From the IMG/VR virus record IMGVR_UViG_3300021399_000014, positions 2,566-66,565 of that record: 64,000 nt of DNA, one strand, 5' to 3'. The notes beneath the pieces were generated by a model, which did not search any database, had not been told where the DNA came from, and saw only the letters and a list, made by a program, of their open reading frames with translations. Positions 987 through 26,260 of the stretch are shown piece after piece (positions within the stretch are counted from its first letter, which is position 1; each line of letters opens with the position of its first letter). A program made the position numbers and the translations under genes. The stretch comes from a virus (taxonomy: Duplodnaviria; Caudoviricetes).

Positions 987-1003
987 TTACAGCTCCTTTA
1001 GTG
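987..1003 (+). promoter_or_regulatory. Phage early promoter motif copy
   Basis: TTACAGCTCCTTTAGTG preceded by GATTATATT. Confidence 0.65.
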
Positions 1004-1033
1004 ACAATAGTGTCGCACAGTAAGGAGGTAAGC

Positions 1034-1285
1034 ATGAACTATAACATCAATGCAACGATCCCTGAGACTGAGGAAATGCCGGTTCCGGATGTATATGGAA
1101 TTGTGAGCAACGGTCACTGGGTTGATGTATTCAACAGCGGCTATGACAAAGAAAAGATCAGGCTGCATTTTGTGTCACCAAGTGGCAAACAGGTTTACGT
1201 AGACATTACGGTAAAAGAGGCGGCAGACCTCAGAAAGGAGTTGAAGGCGGCGACCACATTAGTTCTCATTGCTGAGGACTACTAA
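1034..1285 (+). CDS. Hypothetical protein
   Basis: AAGGAGG RBS then ATG 1034; own promoter and terminator. Confidence 0.7.
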   Translation: MNYNINATIPETEEMPVPDVYGIVSNGHWVDVFNSGYDKEKIRLHFVSPSGKQVYVDITVKEAADLRKELKAATTLVLIAEDY

Positions 1286-1373
1286 GTCAAAAAGGAGAGA
1301 AGGCCATCTACTACAGGTGGTCTTCCTTTTTACTTTGCTGTATACTTATTAAAAACTCAAGGAGGTCTACCAA

Positions 1374-1721
1374 ATGGAAAACGTTAAAATAGTACCTGCG
1401 ATTTGCCCTATGTGTGGAGCTAATATTACAGTAAAACCCGAAGAAGATGCTGCGGTTTGCGAATACTGTGGTAGGGCTTTTATTGTGGATAAAGCTATAG
1501 AGAAATACGATGCCAAATACCATGTCGATAAGATGGAGTACAAAGGAATAGGATATGGCTTAGGCAGAGCTAAGGAACTGGAGCAGCAGAGGAAACTGGA
1601 AGCTGAGAGATTTGACAGAGAGCACTACGAAGATAAGGCCAAGAGCAATACTAGATTCTTCATCTTATTTATGATATTTATTTTTGGGTTAATGATACTA
1701 CTGCACGTTATGATACCGTGA
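1374..1721 (+). CDS. Zinc-ribbon protein with C-terminal transmembrane helix
   Basis: CPMCGA...CEYCG motifs; hydrophobic tail FFILFMIFIFGLMILLHVMIP. Confidence 0.7.
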   Translation: MENVKIVPAICPMCGANITVKPEEDAAVCEYCGRAFIVDKAIEKYDAKYHVDKMEYKGIGYGLGRAKELEQQRKLEAERFDREHYEDKAKSNTRFFILFMIFIFGLMILLHVMIP

Positions 1722-1728
1722 TTAAGTA

Positions 1729-1746
1729 TTACAGCTCCTATAATAG
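1729..1746 (+). promoter_or_regulatory. Phage early promoter motif copy
   Basis: TTACAGCTCCTATAATAG (consensus). Confidence 0.75.
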
Positions 1747-1776
1747 CAATAATGCTGATTTAAAAGGAGGTAAATC

Positions 1777-2034
1777 ATGAAACTTTATTACGACCCGGCG
1801 GGGAATAAGCGCAAAATGAGCAACAAGTTTAGTATCATGAATATGGTAGAAGCGGAGGAATCTCGGATTATTGTGACCGGAAGTCCTGCCGACATTCGCA
1901 AAATGATGAGGGTCGCTGAACAGTATGGCTTTATCAGCTATCACTGCGGCAGACCGATCATGAGGGAAGGTAGGATTTACGAATTGCATGTCGTAGAGGG
2001 AGAGCCCTTCTACCATATCTACAGAGCAGTCTAA
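1777..2034 (+). CDS. Hypothetical protein, paralogue of 3895..4170
   Basis: Shared KKMSxxF...GSPxDIRKxxRV motif; RBS AGGAGG. Confidence 0.7.
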   Translation: MKLYYDPAGNKRKMSNKFSIMNMVEAEESRIIVTGSPADIRKMMRVAEQYGFISYHCGRPIMREGRIYELHVVEGEPFYHIYRAV

Positions 2035-2060
2035 ACGGCTGCTCATTTTTTGTTCATAAT

Positions 2061-2078
2061 TTACAGCTCCTATAATAG
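2061..2078 (+). promoter_or_regulatory. Phage early promoter motif copy
   Basis: TTACAGCTCCTATAATAG (consensus). Confidence 0.75.
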
Positions 2079-2114
2079 CAATAATGCTGATTCAAAAAAT
2101 AGGAGGAAACTATC

Positions 2115-2318
2115 ATGAAGATGAGCGAGATTATGAGGTACGCTATTTTGGGATATATTTGCGTTGCATTGGCTCTTACACTCATAGGAGTGTTTACGGA
2201 AACATTTGCATTCGCAGGATATCTTCTTGCGATAGCGCTGCCAATTACGATCTTTGGATCGGTAGCAATAATATTTGTAGAAGAGCATGAGGAGCGAAAG
2301 GAGAGCAAGGGTCTTTAA
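2115..2318 (+). CDS. Small two-TM membrane protein
   Basis: Two hydrophobic segments and a charged tail; RBS AGGAGG. Confidence 0.7.
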   Translation: MKMSEIMRYAILGYICVALALTLIGVFTETFAFAGYLLAIALPITIFGSVAIIFVEEHEERKESKGL

Positions 2319-2348
2319 CAGGCCCTTCTCTTTTTGCCTGTACCATTT

Positions 2349-2366
2349 TTACAATTCGTATAATAG
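2349..2366 (+). promoter_or_regulatory. Phage early promoter motif copy
   Basis: TTACAATTCGTATAATAG. Confidence 0.65.
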
Positions 2367-2397
2367 CAATAATGCTCATTATAAGGAGGATAACAAA

Positions 2398-2766
2398 ATG
2401 AGAAAAATGGTATATGTATTTGTAACAGTAGTTATGATGGTACTTAGCGGAATGCCGGTTATGGCAAAAGAGGCTAAGGTATCGGAAACAAAGGAAGCAA
2501 AAACATACACATTCTCGGACGTTGTGGACGAGATTGAGTATTATGGCATCGAAGAAGAGGAGACTGAGAAAATTGTCTCCGTGGTGAAGAACGTTAACTA
2601 TGACACCGAGAACTATACTCTCGTGATCACATACAGTGAGCCCACCGATGATGGATTCGAATGGATTTCCATTACAGTAGATAATGGAATGATCGAACTC
2701 CAGGCAAAGGGGCCCGGCTGCGTTGTGGCGGCAGAGTATACGTATCGGGAGTTCATGGAACAGTAA
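2398..2766 (+). CDS. Secreted or membrane-anchored acidic protein
   Basis: Signal-peptide-like MRKMVYVFVTVVMMVLSGMPVMA followed by an E/D-rich domain; RBS AAGGAGG. Confidence 0.7.
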   Translation: MRKMVYVFVTVVMMVLSGMPVMAKEAKVSETKEAKTYTFSDVVDEIEYYGIEEEETEKIVSVVKNVNYDTENYTLVITYSEPTDDGFEWISITVDNGMIELQAKGPGCVVAAEYTYREFMEQ

Positions 2767-2816
2767 TCGGCACGGAGTGAGGAGTAACAGCTCCTCCTCT
2801 TTTTTTTGCTTGTTTT

Positions 2817-2834
2817 TTACGACTCCTATAATAG
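2817..2834 (+). promoter_or_regulatory. Phage early promoter motif copy
   Basis: TTACGACTCCTATAATAG. Confidence 0.65.
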
Positions 2835-2862
2835 AAAAACTATTTTTCAAAGGAGGATTATC

Positions 2863-3162
2863 ATGAATAAAATTGATTATGAGGAACTCGTTGAAAAGCT
2901 TGAGGCTGATGGCTTTATTAAGAGAAAAGATAAAGAGGTCGTACCTCAGACGTATTTCAAGCAGGCAATCGAGCATATGAGCCAGAAGTATTCGGATAAC
3001 GACAGTGATGCTATTCACGGTGGTTGGGGTACTGCATGGGATCAGGTTCGTAAACTTGTGTTGTGGTCGTATGGGGCGCGGACTGTATCTTGGATGAAGA
3101 AAGAACAGCAGCAAGAAGCTAACGATAAGGCGATTGCATTGATCGATATCTTATTTGAGTGA
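2863..3162 (+). CDS. Hypothetical protein
   Basis: RBS AAGGAGG then ATG 2863; terminator follows. Confidence 0.7.
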   Translation: MNKIDYEELVEKLEADGFIKRKDKEVVPQTYFKQAIEHMSQKYSDNDSDAIHGGWGTAWDQVRKLVLWSYGARTVSWMKKEQQQEANDKAIALIDILFE

Positions 3163-3226
3163 TGGTTTAAAAGAAGATTCACTATCGCAGTGGGTCTTCT
3201 TTTTTCGACTTTTTGGTGTACATAAA

Positions 3227-3244
3227 TTACAGCTCTTATAATAG
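3227..3244 (+). promoter_or_regulatory. Phage early promoter motif copy
   Basis: TTACAGCTCTTATAATAG preceded by GTGTACATAAA. Confidence 0.7.
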
Positions 3245-3288
3245 AAAGATTAACTATTTATATAGTTCTTTATTATAGGAGGTAAATT

Positions 3289-3369
3289 ATGGCAATTATC
3301 ATGTTAATAGGTATCATCATCGTTCGTATTGGAATGGATGCAATTGACATCCAGGAAGGTAGAGCATGA
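3289..3369 (+). CDS. 26-aa hydrophobic peptide (not in ORF track)
   Basis: MAIIMLIGIIIVRIGMDAIDIQEGRA*, AGGAGG RBS, downstream of a promoter motif. Confidence 0.5.
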   Translation: MAIIMLIGIIIVRIGMDAIDIQEGRA

Positions 3370-3458
3370 TGAGAAGAATACTAGAAATGATATTTGGCAA
3401 AAAACTGAATAAGGAACAATTAGAATGGACTATATATCTTGAGGAATTTGGAGCATAA
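3366..3458 (+). CDS. 30-aa peptide coupled to the previous ORF
   Basis: ATGA overlap; MMRRILEMIFGKKLNKEQLEWTIYLEEFGA*. Confidence 0.4.
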   Translation: MMRRILEMIFGKKLNKEQLEWTIYLEEFGA

Positions 3459-3496
3459 CTTACGGCTCCTATTCCTTTTTGTTTTCTGATTATATT

Positions 3497-3514
3497 TTAC
3501 AGCTCCTATAATAG
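3497..3514 (+). promoter_or_regulatory. Phage early promoter motif copy
   Basis: TTACAGCTCCTATAATAG preceded by GATTATATT. Confidence 0.75.
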
Positions 3515-3547
3515 CTATAAATCTATATAAAAAAGGAGGATTTTAAA

Positions 3548-3823
3548 ATGAATAAACTTTGGAATGTTGTAATAAACCTAGTCGAGCTGAATGACGAAGA
3601 GCTATGGAAACTTTTCGCATTCTACGAGATCATAGGAGTAATCTTCTCAATAGGAGTAACGGCTATCATCGGATGGCTTGTCGGCTTAATCGTCGGCATG
3701 GCACCGTATGCTAGTGAGCTGTTCCTGGGATGGTTGATTATCTATCTCGTAGTAGAGAGGTGGTTCATAGTAGAAGTTCTGGCTGACTGGATCGAAGCGT
3801 TCAAAGGGGAATGGAAAATCTAA
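3548..3823 (+). CDS. Membrane protein
   Basis: Long hydrophobic stretches; RBS AGGAGG. Confidence 0.7.
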   Translation: MNKLWNVVINLVELNDEELWKLFAFYEIIGVIFSIGVTAIIGWLVGLIVGMAPYASELFLGWLIIYLVVERWFIVEVLADWIEAFKGEWKI

Positions 3824-3894
3824 CAAAAAGAAAGGAGTAGCGTTCAAAGAGCATCTTAACGGGTGCTCTTTGTTTTTTAAGAAAGGAGAAACAT

Positions 3895-4170
3895 ATGTAC
3901 GTACACTTATTAGGCAAGGGAACCTACAAAAAGAAGATGAGTAAGCAGTTCAAAGATGAGAGCTTCATTGATGAGGATGGTTACATCATATATTCGTTTC
4001 AGGGAAGTCCTTCAGACATTCGCAAGGTGGCCAGGGTATTCGAGAAATACTATGGAAAACGCGACGCGGACCCCCATTGGACTTATCAAGTCATGCAGCA
4101 TAACTTTTTAATGGAATACCCGATCGATATAGCTACTTGCGACGGCCGAAATTTTTATGACATTTTCTGA
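3895..4170 (+). CDS. Hypothetical protein, paralogue of 1777..2034
   Basis: Shared motif GSPSDIRKVARV; RBS GAAAGGAG. Confidence 0.7.
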   Translation: MYVHLLGKGTYKKKMSKQFKDESFIDEDGYIIYSFQGSPSDIRKVARVFEKYYGKRDADPHWTYQVMQHNFLMEYPIDIATCDGRNFYDIF

Positions 4171-4177
4171 TTATATT

Positions 4178-4194
4178 TTACAAGCCTTTTAGTG
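4178..4194 (+). promoter_or_regulatory. Phage early promoter motif copy
   Basis: TTACAAGCCTTTTAGTG preceded by GATTATATT. Confidence 0.6.
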
Positions 4195-4224
4195 ACAAAT
4201 TATGTCGCAGAGAAAGGAGAGTAT

Positions 4225-4557: not shown

Positions 4558-4612
4558 GTTGTCAGAAGAGGAGGTCTACATGGCCTCTTCTTTTTTTTCA
4601 AATGTTCGCGTT

Positions 4613-4630
4613 TTACAAGCTTTATTATAG
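4613..4630 (+). promoter_or_regulatory. Phage early promoter motif copy
   Basis: TTACAAGCTTTATTATAG. Confidence 0.6.
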
Positions 4631-4750
4631 AAACAATGCTTGAAGAGGACACTCGTGATGGGGGCGTGCTATGGCGTTAGTCGCAAGCAAAGTAAGCCAA
4701 TGGATTCTACGGAGACTGAATCTATGCTGAACATAGCAGTTTCTATTTAT
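4627..4750 (+). ncRNA. Candidate structured small RNA
   Basis: Promoter motif upstream, no RBS-linked ORF, ATAGAAAC pairs with GTTTCTAT at the far end, internal hairpins, T-rich end. Confidence 0.4.
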
Positions 4751-4774
4751 TTTTTATTTTTTGGTGTACATAAA

Positions 4775-4792
4775 TTACAGCCCGTATAGTAG
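4775..4792 (+). promoter_or_regulatory. Phage early promoter motif copy
   Basis: TTACAGCCCGTATAGTAG preceded by GTGTACATAAA. Confidence 0.65.
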
Positions 4793-4872
4793 AGAGAAAG
4801 GAGGTGAATTAGACTATTTCCCATCTGAGGCAAATCTATGGCACATCATTTTTCATATCTAAACACACAAGG

Positions 4873-4911: not shown

Positions 4912-4963
4912 TGCCGCACGTGGGTGACAACAGTAGCAATTATATTTGTAGAAAGGAGACAAT

Positions 4964-5212: not shown

Positions 5213-5466
5213 TGTTTAATTATCACATTCCTTTAATCATTGCAGTAATTTTGTGCTTGCTGTGTATACTGATCGGCTTTGGAATAGGGACGTTTATCAT
5301 ATGCCCGCCGAAGGAGATGACTGATGGGGATCTGGTTATCGAGGTAGATAAGCAGTCGAACCAGATAAATATGTATTTGGCGTTGAATACCAGCCCGGTT
5401 CAGATAATAAGAGAATACCATACAGGAGATCTGGCTCACTTGCGGATGCTTATCAAAGATGTCTGA
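5212..5466 (+). CDS. N-terminal TM protein
   Basis: TAATG coupling to the previous gene; hydrophobic N-terminus. Confidence 0.65.
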   Translation: MFNYHIPLIIAVILCLLCILIGFGIGTFIICPPKEMTDGDLVIEVDKQSNQINMYLALNTSPVQIIREYHTGDLAHLRMLIKDV

Positions 5467-5469
5467 CAA

Positions 5470-5487
5470 TTACAGCTCCTATAGTGG
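5470..5487 (+). promoter_or_regulatory. Phage early promoter motif copy
   Basis: TTACAGCTCCTATAGTGG. Confidence 0.65.
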
Positions 5488-5521
5488 TAACTGTCAATTA
5501 TATTTGTAGAAAGGAGTAAAT

Positions 5522-6004: not shown

Positions 6005-6078
6005 TTGAGTTACCGAATAAGAGGTCTTGATAGAAATATCAGGGCCTCTTTGTTTTTCGACTTTTTGATGTACACAAT

Positions 6079-6096
6079 TTACAGTTTCTATAATAG
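6079..6096 (+). promoter_or_regulatory. Phage early promoter motif copy
   Basis: TTACAGTTTCTATAATAG. Confidence 0.65.
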
Positions 6097-6272: not shown

Positions 6273-6692
6273 ATGGGAGCCGTATATGATATTTATTTAA
6301 CTCTGCGCGGAATAGAGGACGAAGACGAGATTGTAAGAAAAACAGCGGAATTCGTAGCAAATCATCCTAGCTATCGATTTGTGGACGCAGCATATAAACT
6401 CGATGAGAATTCGACTTTACTTGATGCACTGGATTCGATCTTTGGCGGATATGTTACTTCGACCTATTACGAAGAGGACAATTTTGGAAGATGCATACCG
6501 GAGCCGGACGAGTTCACCGCGCAATTTGACGCTGGCTATGGCTGGGCCGATGCTATGACGGAATGGTTCGAGTATATTAATCCTGCGTTAGGGGTCACTT
6601 CGAGTCTTCGTATTTATCCAGACGAACATCCGATAAAGATGATCAAATGGAGTAATGGCGAGATTGTTGACGGTGATCTTGCTAAGCTCTGA
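6273..6692 (+). CDS. Acidic hypothetical protein
   Basis: RBS AGGAGG; strongly D/E-rich. Confidence 0.7.
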   Translation: MGAVYDIYLTLRGIEDEDEIVRKTAEFVANHPSYRFVDAAYKLDENSTLLDALDSIFGGYVTSTYYEEDNFGRCIPEPDEFTAQFDAGYGWADAMTEWFEYINPALGVTSSLRIYPDEHPIKMIKWSNGEIVDGDLAKL

Positions 6693-6699
6693 TTATATT

Positions 6700-6717
6700 T
6701 TACAGCCATTATTATAG
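6700..6717 (+). promoter_or_regulatory. Phage early promoter motif copy
   Basis: TTACAGCCATTATTATAG preceded by GATTATATT. Confidence 0.65.
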
Positions 6718-7006: not shown

Positions 7007-7100
7007 TCTATTCAGAGAGTCATCCATAATATTGGGTGACTCTCTTTTTTTCTTACCGTAGGAGGTATCGATTATATTCTGAAAGGAGACCAAATTGAGT

Positions 7101-8267
7101 ATGACCAGAGAAGAAAATATAAAAAGGCACAACGAACAGCAGACTATCCTGAAGGACAAGCGGCTTAACGAGTGCTATGAGATGGCTATAAATTCAGCAA
7201 ACGGAATCACAGTCAAAGAGGTCTGCATTACGTTTAAAGTTAGCAGCACATGCGCAAGAAGATATCTAAAAGAACTGATGGAGAAAGGACTCGTTCGAGA
7301 AGCAGGAAAAGACGGCCATACGGTTATATTTAAGGCAAACGATGGTCAGACCACAGATAGTAGCAAAGCGGTCATGGAAGTAGCAAATGACGGGAAAGAG
7401 TTTGAGCAGGACAGTTACATCCCGTGCACAGATAACTGCAAGCCAGGAGATATTATCTGGATCAGCTCTAGATCAGGCGGAGGAGCGTTCTTTAGATATC
7501 TCATCATTACTCCTTGGGAGCATAAAGCAATGGTTCTTGGGATATGCAGCGAGGAGCATCCTATGATCAATCTTAATGATCCTTATTATGTCTTTGTGGG
7601 CAACGATCCAGAAACCGGTAAGAAACTCTATGCGGACATTCGCAATAACTGCCAGAGAGGCTATAAGCAGTTCGGCGAAAGAGTCATGCATGTGGACCAG
7701 GACAGCTTTGATATTGTGAAGGCAAGACTTGCAAGAAGCATGGGTATCAGCACAGGAGGAACAAAGAGCGCAGATCCGCAGCTTCTTAGGGAAATCGAAG
7801 ACTGGAAGAAGCGATATAAGAAGCAGGCTGAAGAAGCTAGTCAGACTATTAATAAATTAACTTATGAAAGGGACCGCGATATACTGGATGAGCAGACTAA
7901 GCGGACAGAAGTTGAGGAGAAGTATGACGATCTGATGCGAGACTATAAGGCGGTTCTCCAGCGTGAAGAAGAAGCTAACAAGAGATGGCAGGAAGCTCAC
8001 GAGATGGTTGTTGAACTCGGAGAAGAACGGGATAGACTCTACGAGCAGCTTAACGCCACAACTGAGAAAACAAACGAGGTTGCTGTATCGGTGAATCAGG
8101 AGCTCGTGGTGGATCTTCAGAGCGAAAACGAGCGGCTTAAAGAACAACTCGTCGACCTTTCTATGCAGCTGGCGAGCGATTCCGCAAAGATAGCTGCGTA
8201 CGAGAAGCATGATGACACTCTCACGAAATTGTTATTCTGCATGATCAAGGGAGGAAAGAATGACTGA
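7101..8267 (+). CDS. N-terminal winged-HTH protein with long C-terminal coiled coil
   Basis: GITVKEVCITFKVSSTCARRYLKELMEKGLV wHTH pattern; C-terminal heptads. Confidence 0.65.
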   Translation: MTREENIKRHNEQQTILKDKRLNECYEMAINSANGITVKEVCITFKVSSTCARRYLKELMEKGLVREAGKDGHTVIFKANDGQTTDSSKAVMEVANDGKEFEQDSYIPCTDNCKPGDIIWISSRSGGGAFFRYLIITPWEHKAMVLGICSEEHPMINLNDPYYVFVGNDPETGKKLYADIRNNCQRGYKQFGERVMHVDQDSFDIVKARLARSMGISTGGTKSADPQLLREIEDWKKRYKKQAEEASQTINKLTYERDRDILDEQTKRTEVEEKYDDLMRDYKAVLQREEEANKRWQEAHEMVVELGEERDRLYEQLNATTEKTNEVAVSVNQELVVDLQSENERLKEQLVDLSMQLASDSAKIAAYEKHDDTLTKLLFCMIKGGKND

Positions 8268-8584: not shown

Positions 8585-8598
8585 CCGGTGATTATATT

Positions 8599-8616
8599 TT
8601 GCAGGTCCTAATATAG
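8599..8616 (+). promoter_or_regulatory. Degenerate phage promoter motif copy
   Basis: TTGCAGGTCCTAATATAG preceded by GATTATATT. Confidence 0.5.
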
Positions 8617-9370: not shown

Positions 9371-10233
9371 AACTTAAAGACATTTTCACGCCTAAAGTAC
9401 TGAGCGGATTGGCAGTAGTTGGCGTAGTAGGAACAGCGGTATTGGCGGCTATGGAAGGAATGGCGTCCAAGGAAAAGATCCAGAAGATTAAGGAAGAGAT
9501 GCCCGAGGAGAAGAAAGAGAGTAAGCTGGCAGTATCCTCTTATTATGCTCCTCGTGTGGCCGGATGCTTCTGGAAGACGATCGTAGTAGGCGGAGTAACA
9601 ATTACTTGCATAGTCGCATCATGCTATCTTAGTGGACTTCAGCTTGCCGCTATGGCCGGTACAGTATCTTATCTTGTATCACAGAGGACAGCAATCGAGA
9701 AGGAGGTAAGTAAAATTCCGGGAGGCAAGGAGGCCCTGGATAAAGCTAAGAAGGAAGTAGCCAAGCTTACTGCCGAGAAGAAGATCGACGAAGCAGAAAA
9801 GAAGAAATCGCCATGGCTTATACAAACGATCGAAGAGACCGGCGAGGGAGAAGACATATTCATAGACGAATGGTCCGGGCGAGTCTTCAGATCGAGTCCT
9901 GAGGCGGTCAAAAAAGCCTGGGACAGTATAAACGCCAGAAGAGACGAGGGATTAGATCTTCCCTTTAGTGATGACGGCGACATGAATATTCCAGAAGCCA
10001 TACCCTATAATGATATTTTCATAGCGCTGAATCTCGAACCAAGCGGCATAGGCCATCAGTTTGGATACCCGGCAAATGATGATCTTTACAGCCATAGAGA
10101 AATCCCCTATGAGATTCAACGGCTTGAGTTCGACGACATGGACGAAAGTCAGAAAAAGAGATATGGCGAAGGAATCTATGTAGTACATATTCCGTCCGAC
10201 TACTATCCTATGGAGTGCTGGGCTGAATACTGA
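9367..10233 (+). CDS. DUF6353-like membrane-anchored protein, paralogue 1
   Basis: PKVLSGLAVVGVVGTAVLA N-terminal helix, second hydrophobic segment, soluble C-domain; family name from recall. Confidence 0.6.
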   Translation: MKLKDIFTPKVLSGLAVVGVVGTAVLAAMEGMASKEKIQKIKEEMPEEKKESKLAVSSYYAPRVAGCFWKTIVVGGVTITCIVASCYLSGLQLAAMAGTVSYLVSQRTAIEKEVSKIPGGKEALDKAKKEVAKLTAEKKIDEAEKKKSPWLIQTIEETGEGEDIFIDEWSGRVFRSSPEAVKKAWDSINARRDEGLDLPFSDDGDMNIPEAIPYNDIFIALNLEPSGIGHQFGYPANDDLYSHREIPYEIQRLEFDDMDESQKKRYGEGIYVVHIPSDYYPMECWAEY

Positions 10234-10240
10234 TCGAGAA

Positions 10241-10258
10241 ATACAGCTCCTATAATAG
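10241..10258 (+). promoter_or_regulatory. Phage early promoter motif copy
   Basis: ATACAGCTCCTATAATAG. Confidence 0.7.
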
Positions 10259-11342: not shown

Positions 11343-11357
11343 ACAGGTGTACGAGTT

Positions 11358-11375
11358 TTACAGGGTCTATAATAG
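11358..11375 (+). promoter_or_regulatory. Phage early promoter motif copy
   Basis: TTACAGGGTCTATAATAG preceded by GTGTACGAG. Confidence 0.65.
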
Positions 11376-11742: not shown

Positions 11743-12018
11743 ATGGCAGAACTGGACTTGGCAAGCCTGATTATATTTGTGCTTGGACTGATAGGCATTG
11801 TAATTGAACCGTGGAGCCCGCAGCCTATATGGATGGCTTGGTATGGCGGGTTATATTTCTGCATGCGTTTTACAGTCCATATTATAGTAACTGTAGTTAT
11901 GTCTAGAAAGGAGACAAAATATGTGGAACTTGAAAACAGTAAGAAAGGTCTGCGGAATCGTAGGCGCTATCTTCAGCGGAGTGATGGGAATCGCAGGAGG
12001 TTACATCGCCGGTTCTGA
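11743..12018 (+). CDS. Membrane protein (3' part overlaps the next gene)
   Basis: GGAGG RBS; two hydrophobic segments. Confidence 0.45.
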   Translation: MAELDLASLIIFVLGLIGIVIEPWSPQPIWMAWYGGLYFCMRFTVHIIVTVVMSRKETKYVELENSKKGLRNRRRYLQRSDGNRRRLHRRF

Positions 12019-15917: not shown

Positions 15918-15918
15918 T

Positions 15919-16431: not shown

Positions 16432-16701
16432 ATGAAGGCGTATAAGTGCGGTATATGCGGAAGATATTTTGAGGACGAGCTGTTGCCTGCCGAAGAACGT
16501 ATTACGGCAAAAGGACATTATAGCATATGTTTATATTTGGAGACCAATACAGAAGACTATACGGTCATACACGACGACATATGTCCAGAATGCGCCGGAT
16601 ATATTACCACTGGGCTGATCGAAAAAGGCTGCTCCAATGAAAACGTGAGATATATATCTGCTGAATACCTTGCCGATCTTCGTAGCAAGATGCAAAAGTG
16701 A
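16432..16701 (+). CDS. Small Zn-finger protein (CxxC...CxxC)
   Basis: MKAYKCGICG...DICPECA; same architecture as 9098..9370. Confidence 0.65.
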   Translation: MKAYKCGICGRYFEDELLPAEERITAKGHYSICLYLETNTEDYTVIHDDICPECAGYITTGLIEKGCSNENVRYISAEYLADLRSKMQK

Positions 16702-16708
16702 TTATATT

Positions 16709-16726
16709 TTACAGGCCCTATAATAG
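16709..16726 (+). promoter_or_regulatory. Phage early promoter motif copy
   Basis: TTACAGGCCCTATAATAG preceded by GATTATATT. Confidence 0.7.
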
Positions 16727-16768: not shown

Positions 16769-16909
16769 ATGAAGGAATTCGTAATGGGAGCAGTTAAGAA
16801 CGTGGCTATGGCTGCATTAGGAGGCTTTGTTGTAGCAACAGGAATCTTCAATGTAGTGTACGGAACCATGATCTGTGCTCAGCCGTTTATGAATAATTCG
16901 GAAGATTAA
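16769..16909 (+). CDS. 46-aa hydrophobic peptide (not in ORF track)
   Basis: MKEFVMGAVKNVAMAALGGFVVATGIFNVVYGTMICAQPFMNNSED*; TAGGAGGTG RBS. Confidence 0.55.
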   Translation: MKEFVMGAVKNVAMAALGGFVVATGIFNVVYGTMICAQPFMNNSED

Positions 16910-17019: not shown

Positions 17020-17313
17020 ATGAGGGAAGAGAATATGAGTTACGAATTCAAGAACATGGACGAAGCTAAAGGATTTGCCCTGCGGAGTATGCACGATCGG
17101 CATGGCGATGAGTACAAGAAGTCAGAGAGAACCAGCTTCGTCCTGTCATTAGCGTTCGAGGTTCTTACGTGTCTCAGTCTGGCCGGCGCTATGATCTTCA
17201 GCAATAGAGAAGGCTACTGGAGAGGCGTGAATACTCTTACCGGTGACAAATGGGAAGACGCAGTTCGCAGCGACGTCAAGGAAATGGGCGATACGATCAA
17301 GTACGACGACTGA
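17020..17313 (+). CDS. Single-TM hypothetical protein
   Basis: GAAAGGAG RBS; central hydrophobic helix. Confidence 0.65.
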   Translation: MREENMSYEFKNMDEAKGFALRSMHDRHGDEYKKSERTSFVLSLAFEVLTCLSLAGAMIFSNREGYWRGVNTLTGDKWEDAVRSDVKEMGDTIKYDD

Positions 17314-17320
17314 TTATATT

Positions 17321-17338
17321 TTACAGTTGCTCTAGTAG
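17321..17338 (+). promoter_or_regulatory. Degenerate phage promoter motif copy
   Basis: TTACAGTTGCTCTAGTAG preceded by GATTATATT. Confidence 0.5.
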
Positions 17339-20383: not shown

Positions 20384-23300
20384 ATGCTTGACTTCATCGA
20401 TATTATCGTAAAATTCAATAAAGACGGTTCAATCGAAGTTAGTCCTGACTTTATTAGCGGCGACAGAGTTACCGATCTCTTAATACGAGGAGGTGCTTTT
20501 CAAGCTGTATGGGACGCTGATAAAAGTATGTGGTCTACTAATGGACATGACGTTACCCGACTTGTGGATAATGAACTATGGCGTAAGGTCGATGAGCTAA
20601 AACTTAAATATGGCAGTGACCGTAATTATATTGTCAAGACCATGGCTAAGTTTTCATCAGGTAAGCTCACGGAATGGAATAAGTTCTTAAAGCAGAGTCC
20701 AGACCTTGCGCATTCATTAGACGACTATGTTACATTCAGTGACCAGAAAGTAACAAAGGAAGATTATGTCAGTAAGAGGCTGCCTTATTCTTTATCCGAT
20801 GGTCCTACTCCGTCATATGACACATTGGTTGGAACGTTATATTCTGACGAGGAACGCGACAAGATCGAATGGGCAGTTGGAGCAATAATGTCCGGCGATG
20901 CAAAAAAGATACAAAAGTTCATCGCTTTATACGGAGAAGGCGGAACCGGCAAATCCACAATTCTTAATATCATAAAGGATCTGTTCTCCGGATACTGTGT
21001 AACATTTAATGCCAAGGCACTAACGTCTAGTGGAAACCAGTTCCCTTTATCAAAGTTCAGGACCAATCCGCTAGTTGCTATACAGTACGACGGTAACCTA
21101 AGCCGTATCGAAGATAACTCAATACTTAACAGTTTGGTCGCTCATGAACCGATGACCGTCAACGAAAAATATAAAGCCGAGTACGATGCCGCGTTCTCGA
21201 CTTTTTTGTTTTTGGGCACAAATAAACCGGTTGCGATAACTGATGCTAAGTCTGGAGTTATTCGAAGGCTCATCGATGTTATTCCGTCTGGTAAACTTCT
21301 GCCTTACGATGTTTACGAACGGTGCATGAACGGCATACAGTTTGAGCTCGGTGCGATTGCTAAGCACTGCATTGACAAGTATAAGAGCATGGGACTCAAC
21401 TATTATGACAAGTACAAGCCAAATGCAATGTTTAGTGCGACAAACGATATGTATAACTTCGTCTACGACAACTATGACGAGTTCTGCAGCGAACCTTATA
21501 TTACTCTGAAGCATGCCTGGATGCTGTATAAGGATTACATGGAAGAAGGGCAATTTCAGTATCCGATGAACCAAAGAGCGTTTAAGTCAGAACTGGCAAA
21601 TTACTTTGAGCACTTCGACGAACGAGTTAGAACCGGCAACGGAGAAAGGCTCAGAAGTGTCTATCGAGGTTTCAAGAAAGACAAGTTCACGATCAGAGAG
21701 CATATCGAAGAAGAATATATTCCTATCGATGAGCTTGATTCTAAGGAAACGGCGGTTGAGGATGTAAGTGATTGGCTCGACCTTTGTAAGACAGAGAGCA
21801 TACTTGATTATATTCTTAAAGACTGCCCTGCTCAGTATGCCAAGGAGGACGGAACTCCGGAGAAATCGTGGGACCGGGTTACTACAACACTGAAAGACCT
21901 GGATACATCCAAGCTCCATTATATTTTGTTACCAGAGGGTCACATCATAATTGACCTTGATCTTAAAGACGAGTTTGGTAATAAATCTATGGACCTCAAT
22001 CTGGAATACGCCAGGAAGTTTCCACCTACATATGCCGAATTCAGTAAGAGTGGAGGAGGCATTCATCTGCATTATATTTATGACGGAGACGCAAGCAAGC
22101 TCAGTCGCATTTATGATGACAATGTAGAAATAAAAGTCTATAGCGGAAAAGCATCGCTCAGAAGGAGGCTGAGTTACTGCAACGATTCACCTATAGCAAC
22201 TATCAGCAGCGGATTACCGTTGAAAGGAGACAAAACAACTATGCTTAACGTAGATAGCATTCGAAGCGAGGTGCAACTGCGTAAGCTGATTAAGAACTGT
22301 TTGGCAAAGAAACACCACGGTCATACGGCTCCTGAAATTAATTATATTTTCAGCGAGCTGGACAAGGCATATAAGAATGGCATCCAATATGACGTCAGCG
22401 ACTTGTACAGACCGATTAAGGCATTTGCCATAAACAGCAGCAATCAGCCAAAGCAGTGTATGCGGCTTGTCGGGAAGATGAAGTTTAAGTCAAAAGAGTT
22501 TGAAAAGAATTCCGAAGGGAATCCAGAGGAACGAAATCAGATTATATTTGATCGAAGCGATCAGCCAGACGCATATGAAGAGAAGAAAGAAGATTCAGAT
22601 AAACCTTTGATTATATTTGATATCGAGGTTTTTCCGAATCTTCTTTTAATTTGTTGGAAAGAGCTCGGAGACAATAAACCCGTTTACACGATGATTAATC
22701 CGTCTCCTCAGGAAGTTAGCGACTTTGTCGAGAATCATCGGCTTATTGGCTTCAACTGCAGAGGATACGACAATCATATTCTCTATGCCAGGATTCTGGG
22801 GAAGAACAATGCTGAGATTTATAAGGTTTCACAAGACATCATCGGGAACAAGTTCGCTGGTTATGGTCCCGCATACAAGATTTCTGAAGCCGATATCTAT
22901 GACATCTGCAAGAAGAAGCAGGGTCTTAAGAAGTGGGAGATTGAGCTTGCTGAGAAAGGTCTGCTTGTTCACCATCAGGAGCTTGGCCTCAGATGGGATA
23001 AACCTGTGCCTGAAGATCAGTGGCATCTCGTCGGAGAATACTGTGCTAACGACGTTATTGCGACAGAAGCTGTTTGGAATGCCAATCAGGAAGACGTTAA
23101 GGCTAGAAGAGCACTGGCAAAAATTAGCGGTCTGAGCATTAACGAGCGTAACAGAGCGCATGCTGCCCGGATTATATTTGGCAACGATAAGCATCCTAAA
23201 CTGATATATACGGATTTAGCCACAGGAAAACGTAGCGATGGAACAATGGACGTTGCAGCGTTCCCTGGATACAAGTACAGCAGAGAAGGTATCGACAAAG

Positions 23301-24463
23301 AATTATATTCTGGCAAGGTTGTAACCGGTAAGTCCATTTACAAAGGGCAGGATCCGGGAGAAGGCGGCAGAGTGTTTGCGAAACCGGGAATGCATTACAA
23401 CGTTGCGCTTCTCGATATCGCGTCTATGCATCCGTCAAGTATCATTGCTCTGAATCTGTTCGGCGAGTATACGAAGCGGTTCAAGGAAATCGTAGACGCA
23501 AGACTGGCTATCAAGCATCGCGATATAGAGAAGCTCAAGACTCTTCTTGGCGGAGCCCTTATGGATGCTATCGGAAGTGACGAAGACATGGACATTTTGT
23601 CTGACGCACTGAAGCTCGTAATCAACAGTGTTTATGGATTCACTACTGCCACCTTCGACAATCCGTTTAAGGATCCCAGGAACGATGACAACATCGTGGC
23701 TAAGCGCGGTGCTCTCTTCATGATAGATCTTCAGGAAGAAGTAGAGAAACGCGGATTTACTGTTGCTCATATTAAGACAGACTCAATTAAGATTCCGAAT
23801 GCTACTCCGGAGATCATCGACTTCGTTATGGAGTTCGGTAAGAAGTACGGGTACAACTTTGAGCACGAAGCAACTTATGAACGCATGTGCTTGATGAACG
23901 ACGCTGTTTATATTGCTAAGTATGACGACAAAGGACAGCGTAATAAAGGCGGAAAGCATGCCGGTCAGTGGACTGCAACAGGAAAGCAGTTCCAGGTTCC
24001 TTATGTGTTCAAGAGCCTGTTCAGCCACGAAGCTATCGAGTTCAAGGATCTTTGTGAGACCAGATCGGTTTCTACAGCAATGCATCTCGATATGAACGAA
24101 GGACTTCCCGAGAACGAGCACAATTATATTTTCGTCGGAAGAGTCGGACAGTTCTGCCCTATCAAAGCTGGATGCGGTGGAGGAGAGCTTCTTCGTGAAG
24201 GCAAAGAAGAAGGCACTTTCGGAGCCGTTAACGGTACCAAGGGATATCGCTGGCTTGAGTCCGAAGTAGTGAGAACTCTCGGTAAAGAAGACGACATCGA
24301 CAGAAGTTACTATAAGGAGCTTGCTGACAGAGCTGTCGAAGATATTTCTAAACTTGGCGATTTCGAATCATTCGTTGGCGAGAGCGCTGATGCGTACGTT
24401 AATGCTGTGCCGTTTATGAATCCGCCAGTAGAAGCGGTTGGTGATGCGGCACAATTCAACTAA
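20384..24463 (+). CDS. SF3 helicase - AEP-type primase - family B DNA polymerase fusion
   Basis: Walker A GEGGTGKST; primase-like IIDLDLKD...SKSGGGIHLHY; exonuclease FDIEVF / GFNCRGYD; Pol motifs DIASMHPS, KLVINSVYG, IKTDS. Confidence 0.85.
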   Translation: MLDFIDIIVKFNKDGSIEVSPDFISGDRVTDLLIRGGAFQAVWDADKSMWSTNGHDVTRLVDNELWRKVDELKLKYGSDRNYIVKTMAKFSSGKLTEWNKFLKQSPDLAHSLDDYVTFSDQKVTKEDYVSKRLPYSLSDGPTPSYDTLVGTLYSDEERDKIEWAVGAIMSGDAKKIQKFIALYGEGGTGKSTILNIIKDLFSGYCVTFNAKALTSSGNQFPLSKFRTNPLVAIQYDGNLSRIEDNSILNSLVAHEPMTVNEKYKAEYDAAFSTFLFLGTNKPVAITDAKSGVIRRLIDVIPSGKLLPYDVYERCMNGIQFELGAIAKHCIDKYKSMGLNYYDKYKPNAMFSATNDMYNFVYDNYDEFCSEPYITLKHAWMLYKDYMEEGQFQYPMNQRAFKSELANYFEHFDERVRTGNGERLRSVYRGFKKDKFTIREHIEEEYIPIDELDSKETAVEDVSDWLDLCKTESILDYILKDCPAQYAKEDGTPEKSWDRVTTTLKDLDTSKLHYILLPEGHIIIDLDLKDEFGNKSMDLNLEYARKFPPTYAEFSKSGGGIHLHYIYDGDASKLSRIYDDNVEIKVYSGKASLRRRLSYCNDSPIATISSGLPLKGDKTTMLNVDSIRSEVQLRKLIKNCLAKKHHGHTAPEINYIFSELDKAYKNGIQYDVSDLYRPIKAFAINSSNQPKQCMRLVGKMKFKSKEFEKNSEGNPEERNQIIFDRSDQPDAYEEKKEDSDKPLIIFDIEVFPNLLLICWKELGDNKPVYTMINPSPQEVSDFVENHRLIGFNCRGYDNHILYARILGKNNAEIYKVSQDIIGNKFAGYGPAYKISEADIYDICKKKQGLKKWEIELAEKGLLVHHQELGLRWDKPVPEDQWHLVGEYCANDVIATEAVWNANQEDVKARRALAKISGLSINERNRAHAARIIFGNDKHPKLIYTDLATGKRSDGTMDVAAFPGYKYSREGIDKELYSGKVVTGKSIYKGQDPGEGGRVFAKPGMHYNVALLDIASMHPSSIIALNLFGEYTKRFKEIVDARLAIKHRDIEKLKTLLGGALMDAIGSDEDMDILSDALKLVINSVYGFTTATFDNPFKDPRNDDNIVAKRGALFMIDLQEEVEKRGFTVAHIKTDSIKIPNATPEIIDFVMEFGKKYGYNFEHEATYERMCLMNDAVYIAKYDDKGQRNKGGKHAGQWTATGKQFQVPYVFKSLFSHEAIEFKDLCETRSVSTAMHLDMNEGLPENEHNYIFVGRVGQFCPIKAGCGGGELLREGKEEGTFGAVNGTKGYRWLESEVVRTLGKEDDIDRSYYKELADRAVEDISKLGDFESFVGESADAYVNAVPFMNPPVEAVGDAAQFN

Positions 24464-24480
24464 GAAAGGAGATTATATTT

Positions 24481-25017
24481 ATGGCAACTAAGACTAATAT
24501 GACAATCAACAGAGAAGACGAGACTGTAGCATTCAACAACGCACAGATCCCTTATGGTGCGTGGAGAAACTTTGCAGGAGGGCCGACTCGTTTCGACCCC
24601 AAGAACACAAAGCGGTTCTTCGAGGTATTCTTGACTGAAGAAGAGGCTCAGCGTCTCTCCGATAAGGGATGGAACGTCAAGTGGCTCGAGCCTCGTAATC
24701 CCTCTGAGCCCAGACAGGCTCATATTAAGGTGTTCGTTAACTACGATGTGCCCAGAAGGTTCCAGCCTCGTATTTGGATGACCAGAAAGAAAGGTGATCC
24801 TATTCTGCTGGATGTCGAAGACCTTGCGCAGCTTGACGGCGATGATATCACGAGAGCTAAGCTCCAGATTCGTCCGTATGACTGGGAACTTCCTACAGGA
24901 GCTTGTGGCCGTAAGGCTATGCTGAAACAGATGTTCGTTACTATTGAGGAAGACGACTTCGGAGCTGAGTTCTTCGGTAATGATGAGGACGACGAAGATC
25001 TTCCGTTTGAGGAATGA
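24481..25017 (+). CDS. Single-stranded DNA-binding protein
   Basis: Position after the polymerase; OB-like core; acidic tail DEDDEDLPFEE. Confidence 0.7.
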   Translation: MATKTNMTINREDETVAFNNAQIPYGAWRNFAGGPTRFDPKNTKRFFEVFLTEEEAQRLSDKGWNVKWLEPRNPSEPRQAHIKVFVNYDVPRRFQPRIWMTRKKGDPILLDVEDLAQLDGDDITRAKLQIRPYDWELPTGACGRKAMLKQMFVTIEEDDFGAEFFGNDEDDEDLPFEE

Positions 25018-25028
25018 TTATATTTTAA

Positions 25029-26231
25029 ATGAGTTTTGAATTAAGAGAGCACCAGAAAGCGGCGCTTAAGAAGATGCGCAATGGATGCATCCTAAACGGT
25101 TCTGTCGGTTCTGGAAAGTCTCTTACTTCACTTGCCTATTACTATACTTTTGTGTGTAAAGGTTCTATGGCTAAGCGCACTATGAGCAAACCAAAGGACC
25201 TTTACATAATCACTACGGCAATGAAGAGAGATAAAAAAGAATGGCCATTAGAATGCGCTAGGTTTGGCTTGACTGAAGGCGATAATGATGTCGGCGTTAA
25301 AATCACGATCGACAGCTGGAATAATATCGCTAAGTATACTCAAGTCACTGGCGCATTCTTTATATTTGATGAACAACGAGTTGTAGGAAAAGGAGCTTGG
25401 GTCAAAGCGTTTCTATCTATAACTAAGCGAAACAAGTGGATACTTCTTACCGCAACTCCTGGAGACAACTTTATGGACTATTGTCCCGTGTTCATCGCTA
25501 ATGGCTTTTACAAGAACCGTACGGATTTTATCAGACAGCACGTCATACCTAAGCCATACGTTAAATATTGGGCAGTGGAACGATACGTCAATGTAAGAAA
25601 ATTATATTATTACAAAGACTTAATACTCGTCCCAATGGAGTATAAGCGAGACGTAGAATACCATCACATGGACGTTAAGGTGCCTTACTCATCAACAGCA
25701 TATAAACGAGCCATGAAAGATCGATGGAATATATTCGAGGACCGTCCAATTGCTAACGCCAGTGAGCTATGTTACGTGCTTAGGAGAATAGTGAACAGTG
25801 ACAGGCGGCGTGTCGACGCTGTAGGCGAACTTCTTGAAATGCATGGCAAGGCAATTATATTTTTTAACTTTACATACGAAGCGGAGATACTTGAAAAGCT
25901 GTGTAAAGATAAAAATATAGTATCAGCAAGATGGGACGGGCATAAACATGAGAAAATACCGGATGCTGAAAAGTGGGTATATCTTGTTCAGTACGCTGCC
26001 GGCGATAGTGGATGGAACTGCATAGAGACCGACACTATTATATTTTACTCACAGAACTATTCTTACAAGTCTACGGTTCAAGCGGCAGGACGAATAGACA
26101 GAATGAATACGCCGTTTAAGCATCTGTATTACTATCATGTCCGTTCACAGTCTGGAATTGACAATGCAATTCATAGAGCGCTGAAGCAGAAGAAGAAATT
26201 CAACGAGCGATCATATTTTAGCTCTTTTTAG
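25029..26231 (+). CDS. SNF2/SF2 helicase
   Basis: GSVGSGKS Walker A, FDEQ Walker B, LLTATP, QAAGRIDR motif VI. Confidence 0.85.
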   Translation: MSFELREHQKAALKKMRNGCILNGSVGSGKSLTSLAYYYTFVCKGSMAKRTMSKPKDLYIITTAMKRDKKEWPLECARFGLTEGDNDVGVKITIDSWNNIAKYTQVTGAFFIFDEQRVVGKGAWVKAFLSITKRNKWILLTATPGDNFMDYCPVFIANGFYKNRTDFIRQHVIPKPYVKYWAVERYVNVRKLYYYKDLILVPMEYKRDVEYHHMDVKVPYSSTAYKRAMKDRWNIFEDRPIANASELCYVLRRIVNSDRRRVDAVGELLEMHGKAIIFFNFTYEAEILEKLCKDKNIVSARWDGHKHEKIPDAEKWVYLVQYAAGDSGWNCIETDTIIFYSQNYSYKSTVQAAGRIDRMNTPFKHLYYYHVRSQSGIDNAIHRALKQKKKFNERSYFSSF

Positions 26232-26242
26232 GTGCACGTGTT

Positions 26243-26260
26243 TTACAATTCCTATAGTGA
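26243..26260 (+). promoter_or_regulatory. Phage promoter motif copy upstream of the nuclease-RNAP operon
   Basis: TTACAATTCCTATAGTGA preceded by GTGCACGTG. Confidence 0.55.

Follow-up and report, generated by a model that had tools for sequence, protein, structure and literature searches.

A repeated promoter-like element in the early region of a temperate phage, probably read by the phage's own two-barrel RNA polymerase

The DNA analysed here, referred to as the window, is a stretch of 64,000 nucleotides from a gut phage of the class Caudoviricetes (positions 2,566 to 66,565 of IMG/VR record IMGVR_UViG_3300021399_000014), and coordinates are those of the window. An integrase is present, and the phage is temperate, as are its prophage relatives. 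The phage RNA polymerase presumed in the original prediction was found at 27150-29957 as a single-chain two-barrel enzyme of 935 residues, encoded by the last gene of the early region. It matched the profile PHROG 4291 (E 3.7e-291) and, weakly, the Pfam RdRP family, and its DFDGD loop is invariant. Residues 47-206 form three well-predicted helix-turn-helix (HTH) or winged-HTH modules, and a fourth HTH lies at the C-terminus. Assignment of the N-terminal HTH to sigma region 4 was rejected (Pfam 23.3 bits, cut-off 25.7), and a Foldseek comparison of the HTH modules with sigma region 4 gave no match at E below 0.001. The N-terminus of the polymerase resembles the DUF7211 tag by eye only; Pfam did not detect the tag there or on two neighbouring proteins. 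The left end codes for several small HTH proteins, and 7095-8267 for an HTH-bearing protein of 390 residues. Behind the host-type promoter at 241..269, palindromes are followed by a small repressor-like HTH gene (336-578), the one gene likely to need the host polymerase. The features are listed below; the promoter copies are candidates, named by site.

241..269, + strand: putative ordinary host-type promoter, for contrast (TTTACA, 17 nt, TG-extended TAATCT; read from the sequence)
977..1004, + strand: promoter copy, site 987; class 1, GATTATATT upstream; hexamer TTTAGT
1719..1746, + strand: promoter copy, site 1729; exact TTACA-N5-TATAATAG
2051..2078, + strand: promoter copy, site 2061; exact; terminator 17 nt before
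2339..2366, + strand: promoter copy, site 2349; exact; behind terminator 2307-2327
2807..2834, + strand: promoter copy, site 2817; TTACG variant; behind terminator 2779-2796
3217..3244, + strand: promoter copy, site 3227; class 2, GTGTACA upstream
3487..3514, + strand: promoter copy, site 3497; class 1
4168..4195, + strand: promoter copy, site 4178; class 1; hexamer TTTAGT
4603..4630, + strand: promoter copy, site 4613; hexamer TATTAT; behind a terminator
4765..4792, + strand: promoter copy, site 4775; class 2; TATAGT
5460..5487, + strand: promoter copy, site 5470; TATAGT
6069..6096, + strand: promoter copy, site 6079; class 2; behind terminator 6019-6050
6690..6717, + strand: promoter copy, site 6700; class 1; TATTAT
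8589..8616, + strand: promoter copy, site 8599; class 1; TTGCA, TAATAT; weakest match
10231..10258, + strand: promoter copy, site 10241; ATACA variant
11348..11375, + strand: promoter copy, site 11358; class 2
11860..11887, + strand: promoter copy, site 11870; TATTAT; not in the earlier list
16699..16726, + strand: promoter copy, site 16709; class 1, exact
17311..17338, + strand: promoter copy, site 17321; class 1; TCTAGT; ribosome site begins 3 nt past the hexamer
26233..26260, + strand: promoter copy, site 26243; before the endonuclease-exonuclease-polymerase operon
26259..26306, + strand: leader hairpin and T-run, terminator-like attenuator (-21.4 kcal/mol), directly past the 26243 promoter
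26317-26604, + strand: endonuclease gene, co-oriented, in front of the polymerase gene
26579-27157, + strand: exonuclease gene, co-oriented, in front of the polymerase gene
27150..29957, + strand: single-chain two-barrel RNA polymerase, PHROG 4291; three N-terminal and one C-terminal HTH modules

The motif TTACA-N5-TATAATAG had been listed at 19 places, and all 19 coordinates carry it. The exact pattern was matched eight times, always on the + strand, where none was expected; the other 11 listed sites deviate from it at one to four positions, for instance TTTAGTGA at 987 and 4178, TCTAGTAG at 17321 and TTGCA..TAATATAG at 8599. With one mismatch allowed, the core gave 23 matches against 1.6 expected. 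A weight-matrix scan of the whole genome (66,565 bp) returned 21 copies, namely the 19 listed, the copy at 11870 and one located 73 nt before the start of the window. The claims that the copies occupy only the + strand, lie in intergenic positions and are missing late in the genome were all borne out. All 21 copies are on the + strand and between reading frames, the sole copy within a possible frame (92 codons) being 11870, and neither the weight matrix nor a broader family matrix found any after 26243 (about 26.3 kb). The best weight-matrix score on the - strand was at the level of shuffled sequence, and the family matrix gave a single look-alike on that strand, at 16767-16752.

Alignment of the copies revealed a longer motif than first described, TG-N8-TTACA-N5-TATAAT-RR. 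All 21 copies have the TG, 10 and 9 nt ahead of TTACA, and the hexamer is followed by two purines. The hexamer is a perfect TATAAT in ten copies; its position 2 is A in 18 and another base in three. The proposed division into two upstream classes was correct in part: both classes exist, with nine GATTATATT-like and six GTGTAC/GTGCAC-like copies, but six copies belong to neither. No inverted repeat was seen inside the conserved boxes of the aligned copies. A near-identity search of the phage collection with this DNA gave no match.

The position of the motif upstream of ribosome binding sites, as originally described, holds for 20 of the 21 copies, which have a Shine-Dalgarno sequence and start codon 8-58 nt past the hexamer (judged by eye for site 6079). 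Copies often sit directly behind terminators and in front of the ribosome sites of unrelated genes; 37 intrinsic terminators were counted in total, against 11.8 expected. Strand specificity, the frequent position behind terminators and the position directly before ribosome sites support the view that the element behaves as a promoter. Among 191 non-redundant copies, 170 have a Shine-Dalgarno sequence and a start codon no more than 120 nt away. The core of the ribosome site begins at or before +7, counted from the hexamer, in 38 of the 170, and the start codon lies at or before +22 in 46. Because ribosome sites begin so close behind the hexamer in those 38 copies, RNA would have to start at the adjoining purines, and the first purines directly past the hexamer are thus the probable transcription start. 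The same start point had been proposed from leader hairpins. That argument failed, since hairpins starting exactly at the first base past the hexamer occur at four of the 21 copies, no more often than by chance (random mean 3), and the spacing of the ribosome sites is what supports the proposed start. The hairpin was rejected as a marker of +1; across the family, leader stems may reach back into the hexamer, which prevents them from fixing the start.

The recommended motif scan of the full genome and relatives showed that the motif recurs on the strand of the polymerase gene across the lineage. Its family-wide form is CGCR-N4-WWACA-N5-TWTWAT-GR, and the same core, spacing, strand and early location were found in relatives from two bacterial phyla; the flanks differ between the phyla while the geometry is kept. 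Exact copies number 11 in Lactococcus phage P078 and 12 in Lactococcus phage 1706; Arthrobacter phage Mudcat has 8 copies and Gordonia phage Secretariat 10, Streptomyces phage RavenPuff also carries the motif, and an IMG/VR relative gave 13 versus 1. In 80 polymerase-bearing prophage loci of Clostridia the family matrix gave 133 forward matches versus one reverse; 70 of the loci have at least one match, and 73 of the matches fall 500-1500 nt before the polymerase gene. The position of site 26243, about -950 from the polymerase start, is likewise conserved across the family, as is the terminator-like leader past the promoter in front of the polymerase operon. The motif was found in every polymerase-bearing relative checked. 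MT835495.1, considered as an exception without the motif, was rejected as such, as two copies precede its polymerase operon. The phage collection holds no polymerase-less relative that could serve as a control, and effects of lineage and of the enzyme are therefore inseparable. A primase-polymerase fusion has the same distribution as the polymerase (254 versus 250 records, same genera).

Strict matches in five host genomes (18.9 Mb) numbered 33, of which 32 fall within or next to polymerase-bearing prophages. Of 151 genomes of the Lachnospiraceae family, just two show clustered matches, and these two are also the only ones with the polymerase gene; matches in the other 149 are at control level. 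By this distribution the motif is not a host promoter type.

The anatomy of the element was compared with that of sigma-70 and sigma-A promoters. TTACA had been judged not to be a -35 element, and this is upheld by its distance of only 5 bp from the hexamer and a geometry unlike that of sigma-70. The conserved boxes nearest the hexamer are separated from it by spacers of 5 and 14 bp, and no -35 element is found at 16-18 bp. A TG extension at -15/-14 is present in none of the 21 copies, the positions before the hexamer being mostly C/C. A consensus scan found canonical -35/-10 pairs at chance level (36 versus 33.8 and 29 versus 30.9) and recovered only one of the 21 motif sites. A nested host promoter, with TTTACA as -35 and a -10 hexamer 16-18 bp downstream, was considered and rejected, being present at three of the 21 sites only. 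Bacillota promoters lacking both a -35 element and a TG extension are weak, and sigma-70 needs A at -11. In 120 distinct copies from prophages, the hexamer has T (57%) more often than A (36%) at position 2; TTTTAT is the commonest form, and T1, T3, A5 and T6 are invariant.

The 21 elements are, on balance, probably promoters of the early, replication and polymerase genes that are read by the phage's own polymerase, their most likely reader, and not by host sigma-A. The three boxes share one face of the DNA at a spacing of about 10 bp and are followed by a purine run. The tandem HTH modules of the polymerase would bind the upstream boxes, the A/T hexamer would serve as the melting region and RNA would begin at the first purines directly behind it. 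The early units are short, each ending at a terminator. The copy at 26243, the last one, combines a terminator-like leader with the lack of any terminator further on, and transcription from it may also reach the late genes on the other side of the packaging site; in the window and in 33 loci, the interval from the polymerase gene to the first late gene showed no degenerate copy of the motif that could act as a late promoter. As the polymerase gene is the last of the early region and itself under the motif, another source must supply the first polymerase molecules, which could be carried in the virion or arise from host read-through. For a temperate phage with prophage relatives, induction cannot rely on a virion enzyme. 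A precedent is Thermus phage P23-45, which has two single-chain two-barrel polymerases, each with its own promoter motif (PMC10770324).

Some observations count against reading by the phage polymerase. Abundant intrinsic terminators are classic signals for host polymerase, and YonO-type enzymes have no flap domain (PMC5467207). Given 18 hexamers with A at position 2, ten of them perfect, weak use by the host is possible in this phage. The principal alternative is that host sigma-A reads the elements as strong early promoters driven by the -10 hexamer, with the upstream boxes as a lineage-specific extension or a site for a phage regulator, and that the phage polymerase acts elsewhere, e.g. on the late genes. 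Such a scheme would need no virion enzyme, which suits a temperate phage, and it agrees with the hexamers of this phage, with early units closed by intrinsic terminators and with a polymerase gene placed last before the late genes; host polymerase also transcribes the early genes of most phages. YonO transcribes late genes of SPbeta (PMC5467207), an extended motif conserved throughout the lineage of crAss-like phages proved to be a host promoter (10.1101/2020.03.07.982082), and notes on Gordonia cluster DJ phages take the motif as a sigma-70 -10 element (PMC9671010, PMC10868162). The alternative is nevertheless unlikely, in view of the missing -35 element and TG extension, the prevalence of T at position 2 throughout the family, the ribosome sites beginning 3-7 nt past the hexamer in 38 copies, the nested -35 promoter at just three sites and the absence of the motif from host genes. 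Nor was any alternative conserved late promoter found behind the polymerase gene.

The original prediction had also allowed for a host polymerase modified by the phage. A phage protein binding the TTACA and CGC boxes could redirect host polymerase, as MotA/AsiA of T4 do, with sigma-A still reading the -10-like hexamer. T4 middle promoters likewise combine a -10-like hexamer with conserved upstream boxes at a non-canonical distance, and the phage encodes the small HTH proteins of the left end and the 390-residue HTH-bearing protein at 7095-8267. This was considered highly improbable. Since the motif already stands ahead of the earliest genes, such a factor would have to come in with the virion; no sigma factor, AsiA-like or MotA-like protein was detected among the early genes, which leaves this part of the prediction without a candidate factor, and TTTTAT hexamers are poor targets for sigma-A. 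In addition, the polymerase is the only transcription protein conserved throughout the lineage (10.1101/842583). A role other than promoter, be it as an operator present in many copies, a site for RNA processing or stability, or a mini-cassette that moves along with small genes, can practically be dismissed: long identical leaders shared by some copies (e.g. AGCAATAATGCTGATT at 1729, 2061 and 2349) suggest cassette duplication, but the conserved part stops at the purines ahead of variable leaders, copies stand between terminators and the ribosome sites of genes unrelated to one another, the same geometry recurs in both phyla with differing flanks, and flanking repeats typical of mobile elements are lacking.

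A bolder version of reading by the phage polymerase is a self-contained programme, in which the HTH-fused polymerase is carried in the head by means of a conserved disordered N-terminal tag, enters with the DNA, places one HTH module on each box, starts RNA directly past the hexamer and drives its own gene. This version is conceivable, though rather doubtful. If true, lytic growth would be a positive-feedback switch and the prophage would be silent simply for want of polymerase, in phages that are common gut and soil siphophages. In the record of phage 1706 the polymerase is not flagged as a structural protein.

To our knowledge, promoters have been described neither for HTH-fused two-barrel polymerases nor for YonO. 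The closest known system is P23-45, where a phage-encoded single-chain two-barrel polymerase likewise has a repeated motif of its own ahead of pre-early and early genes, and where the assignment also rests partly on co-occurrence among relatives. In P23-45, the virion enzyme gp96 uses an AT-rich motif and the non-virion enzyme gp64 a GC-rich motif (PMC10770324). Start sites, ChIP-seq and enzyme activity were measured there, whereas the present motif comes from sequence analysis; the motif sequences are unrelated, and the polymerase described here has fused HTH modules and three boxes in 10-bp phase. Promoters of T7, T3 and SP6 are similar: they too are compact and contiguous, span about 30 bp, have an A/T melting block that adjoins +1 on its upstream side (a position deduced here), lead into a purine-rich initial transcribed sequence and occur many times on a single strand. 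Their enzymes are of an unrelated, Pol A-like class, and the T7 polymerase gene is expressed first, from host promoters, while the gene described here is last and under its own motif. YonO of the Bacillus prophage SPbeta is also a prophage-borne, single-chain relative of the cellular polymerase core from Bacillota, but it is not fused to HTH modules, its promoter sequence is undefined, and a single start serves the one late operon that it transcribes (PMC5467207). Sigma-70 and sigma-A promoters, including the extended -10 type, share the TATAAT-like hexamer, and the TTTACA box resembles TTGACA; the present element differs in its spacing of 5 bp instead of 17, the lack of TG at -15/-14, the family-wide variability of hexamer position 2, a start placed directly past the hexamer and its absence from host genes. 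Promoters of the N4 virion polymerase are short hairpins with a 3-nt loop just before +1, unlike the boxes described here, which contain no inverted repeat.

A literature search on the motif, on YonO promoters and on promoters of clusters AU and BI gave nothing beyond notes on two Gordonia cluster DJ phages, Vardy and Conley, which describe intergenic motifs of 50 bp and 43 nt, possibly regulating expression (PMC9671010, PMC10868162). Judged by description, as TATAAT-bearing intergenic repeats before small genes, these are probably the same element as that of Gordonia phage Secretariat. Both papers adopt the sigma-70 -10 reading without a link to a phage polymerase, and mention neither the upstream boxes and cross-phylum conservation nor a copy before the polymerase gene. 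The PHROG 4291 polymerase family is already predicted in print, and a search of the accessible literature gave no experiment on it. With a delimited promoter of some 30 bp whose invariant bases are clear, the polymerase becomes directly testable, and the element could provide a small orthogonal expression pair for use in Gram-positive species and gut bacteria. If the proposed reading is true, it shows promoter finding without a sigma factor by a minimal relative of cellular polymerase. For annotation, the motif marks early transcription units across a large group of phages and prophages; members of the PHROG 4291 family include orf75 of Lactococcus phage 1706, FP_oengus, hundreds of actinophages and many prophages of gut Clostridia.

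The element TG-N8-TTACA-N5-TATAAT-RR was present at all 19 sites, from 987 to 26243, where the original prediction had placed it. The exact form TTACA-N5-TATAATAG gave eight matches, all on the + strand, against none expected, and the core with one mismatch gave 23 against 1.6 expected. A weight matrix applied to the whole genome found 21 copies on the + strand, which were the 19 sites and two others, at window position 11870 and 73 nt ahead of the window; no - strand score exceeded shuffle level. All 21 lie between reading frames and none beyond 26243, in agreement with the predicted intergenic, + strand location and the absence of copies after 31 kb. A Shine-Dalgarno site and a start codon follow 8-58 nt downstream of 20 of the 21 copies (site 6079 was judged by eye). 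The motif was found to extend beyond its first description. It includes an invariant TG, located 10 and 9 nt ahead of TTACA, a 5-nt spacer with a bias towards GCTCC and, after the hexamer, a pair of purines. A terminator precedes many copies, and 37 terminator-like + strand hairpins were counted in the first 18 kb, compared to 11.8 expected. Two upstream classes had been proposed and both exist, but six copies belong to neither.

Other sequences were observed around the copies. The 8-mer ATTATATT occurs 54 times on the + strand of the whole genome (window 618-63823) and never on the - strand, mostly in the early/replication half and in some cases inside genes; nine of them serve as the upstream arm in promoters of class 1, one of the two upstream types. 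On the - strand, near-perfect host-type promoters (TTGTCA, 17 nt, TATAAT; 11/12) at 1007-979 and 4198-4170 overlap motif copies 987 and 4178, the two with the TTTAGTGACAA variant, and could be antisense or leftward host promoters. A strong look-alike of the motif on the - strand, 16767-16752 (family score 29.3), corresponds to the ribosome site of the gene at 16769 read in reverse complement; it faces promoter 16709.

The ends of the 66,565-bp contig, of which the window is bases 2566-66565, overlap each other, and the contig is thus a complete, circularly assembled phage genome. Nearly all genes are on the + strand. The integrase is followed by about 27 kb of small early and replication genes, then by an endonuclease, an exonuclease and an RNA polymerase of 935 residues, and, after a non-coding stretch, by packaging, head, tail and lysis genes. 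Before the window, one motif copy separates the start of the integrase from the first + strand gene. The main features are as follows.

Genome 1320-2475, just 5' of the window, - strand: tyrosine integrase, adjoining a tRNA 3'-end-like attachment core
241-330 region: ordinary host-type promoter (TTTACA, 17 nt, TG-extended TAATCT) before the repressor-like HTH gene 336-578
20384-24463: helicase-primase-PolB fusion, within the early/replication region
26259-26306, + strand: terminator-like hairpin and T-run (-21.4 kcal/mol), immediately 3' of the endonuclease-exonuclease-polymerase operon promoter
27150-29957: RNA polymerase
30250-30990: A/T-rich non-coding stretch of 740 nt with short repeats and G/C-rich blocks, between the small gene 3' of the polymerase and the first late gene; probably a packaging or origin region

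The promoter of the HTH gene comes after the terminator behind the first gene and is followed by palindromes (CACGAAACGTG and others).

Relatives of the polymerase, with 35-45% identity, were found in 250 phage records from Arthrobacter, Gordonia, Streptomyces, Lactococcus, Faecalibacterium, Rhodococcus, Curtobacterium, Microbacterium and human oral and gut contigs. A preprint that is silent on promoters names the polymerase as the signature gene of an Actinobacteria-Firmicutes supercluster (10.1101/842583). All relatives examined have the motif core, with its 5-bp spacing unchanged, on the gene strand of the early region.

Motif copies in relatives
Lactococcus P078: 11 exact copies, TTACATACCCTATAATGAAAGG
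Lactococcus 1706: 12 copies, TTACA-N5-TATAGT-AGAAAG
Arthrobacter Mudcat: 8 copies
Gordonia Secretariat: 10 copies, TTACA-N5-TATAAT-GAGACCCCTA
Streptomyces RavenPuff: at least 1 copy
IMG/VR relative with 65% polymerase identity: 13 forward, 1 reverse

In bacterial genomes, 80 prophage loci with the polymerase were identified, mostly in gut Clostridia (Lachnospiraceae, Ruminococcus, Oscillospiraceae, Hungatella, Blautia and [Ruminococcus] torques). With a phage-weighted matrix these loci contained 133 forward matches and one reverse match, and 70 of the 80 had a match. The matches include 73 located 500-1500 nt before the polymerase start, with a peak at -950, and sub-threshold copies are found at the same position in most of the remaining loci and in the gut phage MT835495.1. 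Taken together, 120 distinct copies yield the family consensus CGC(A/G)-N4-(A/T)(A/T)ACA-N4-C-T(A/T)T(A/T)AT-G-purines; in the present phage and its closest relative the CGC box is replaced by TG two bases further upstream.

The polymerase belongs to PHROG 4291 (E 3.7e-291). A weak match to the Pfam RdRP family and an invariant DFDGD loop indicate a YonO/QDE-1-like single-chain two-barrel enzyme. Weak HTH matches were seen at residues 59-79, 105-128 and 165-185, and AlphaFold predicted three helical HTH or winged-HTH modules at 47-206 (pLDDT 80-93), preceded by 46 residues that are predicted to be disordered despite being highly conserved. A fourth HTH is located at the C-terminus. With starts 10 bp apart, the three promoter boxes would lie on one face of the helix, which suits tandem HTH modules in a putative pairing of boxes with modules. 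A kinship of the HTH modules to sigma region 4 was searched for with Foldseek, which returned generic winged-helix similarities only. The disordered N-terminus (LSHEG..GRGSGRYGWGTG, 27150-27290) resembles, by eye, the N-termini of two proteins (LEHHGVLGQRKGKRNGPPYPL; 32529-32650 and 33677-33770) encoded directly 5' of the terminase gene, and Pfam detected no family in any of the three.

Recognition of the motif by the host sigma-A was considered in view of its TATAAT hexamer. In the first 36 kb canonical -35/-10 pairs were about as frequent as expected by chance, the conserved boxes have spacers of 5 and 14 bp, and the motif has no TG extension. Only 3 of the 21 sites contain a nested host promoter with TTTACA as -35. 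Sigma-70 recognition rests most on the A at -11. Across the family, 57% of copies have T and 36% have A at position 2 of the hexamer, which points to a different reader. T1, T3, A5 and T6 are invariant and TTTTAT is the most frequent hexamer, although the sets used to train the family matrix were rich in TATAAT. A Shine-Dalgarno site and start codon lie within 120 nt of 170 of the 191 non-redundant copies. In 38 of these 170 the ribosome-site core begins at or before +7 after the hexamer, as in TATAGT-AGAAGGAGGACACTAACATG of phage 1706, and in 46 the start codon is at or before +22. Since the ribosome site would be truncated if transcription began 7 nt downstream, the start is probably at the purines adjoining the hexamer. 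Leader hairpins beginning exactly at the base after the hexamer, earlier taken as a hint of such a start, were not more frequent than by chance.

The motif does not belong to the promoter types of the hosts. A strict pattern matched 33 times in five host genomes (18.9 Mb); 32 of these matches were in or beside polymerase prophages, on the strand of the polymerase, and the reversed control pattern matched once. Among 151 Lachnospiraceae-family genomes, clustered matches were found in two, exactly the two with a polymerase gene; the other 149 had 13 single matches, compared to 15 for the control.

The primase-polymerase fusion and the RNA polymerase are distributed alike (254 versus 250 records), so the motif is a lineage trait, and what ties it to the polymerase is anatomy and not a natural knockout. 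In crAss-like phages an extended motif shared by a whole lineage can serve as a host promoter (10.1101/2020.03.07.982082). On balance, the element is very probably a promoter, and the phage polymerase appears to be its likelier reader; recognition by sigma-A is unlikely. Host polymerase aided by a phage factor is a still more doubtful reader, and no sigma factor was found among the early genes.

P23-45 polymerases have private promoters, as measured (PMC10770324), and the YonO promoter is undefined (PMC5467207). Literature on the motif, on YonO promoters and on cluster AU/BI promoters yielded nothing beyond two Gordonia DJ announcements, which describe an intergenic motif, 50 bp or 43 nt long, "with a TATAAT -10 sigma-70 sequence" and draw no link to a polymerase (PMC9671010, PMC10868162). 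Compared by description only, that motif is probably the same element.

The polymerase gene is the last in the early region and is itself downstream of the motif. The leader hairpin is kept family-wide, at the same position in 69 prophage leaders (mean z -2.6), with a conserved purine arm GAAGAGAGAG and a variable inner stem. Delivery with the virion is one possible source of the first polymerase molecules. The likeness of the N-terminal tag to those of the two enzymes encoded just 5' of the terminase gene is in favor of this, as is the adjoining endolysin gene in Lactococcus phages. However, the 1706 record marks other proteins as structural and not the polymerase, and prophage induction cannot draw on a virion enzyme. 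Alternatively, the first molecules could result from host read-through. From the polymerase gene to the late genes neither a motif copy nor another conserved promoter was found, and the late genes may thus be transcribed by read-through that crosses the packaging site.

In phage 1706, the 448-nt gap (41629-42050) before the polymerase gene orf75 has no motif copy; three to four CACGAAAAAACTTCGGGA repeats are located there. Three DUF6353 (PHROG 2152) paralogues are present in the early region of the present phage (9367-10233, 10539-11342 and 17630-18601). The most frequent 10- to 12-mers of MT835495.1 are AAATCAAAATG-type start contexts and not Shine-Dalgarno sites, and TCAAAATG was noted in the late half of the present window.
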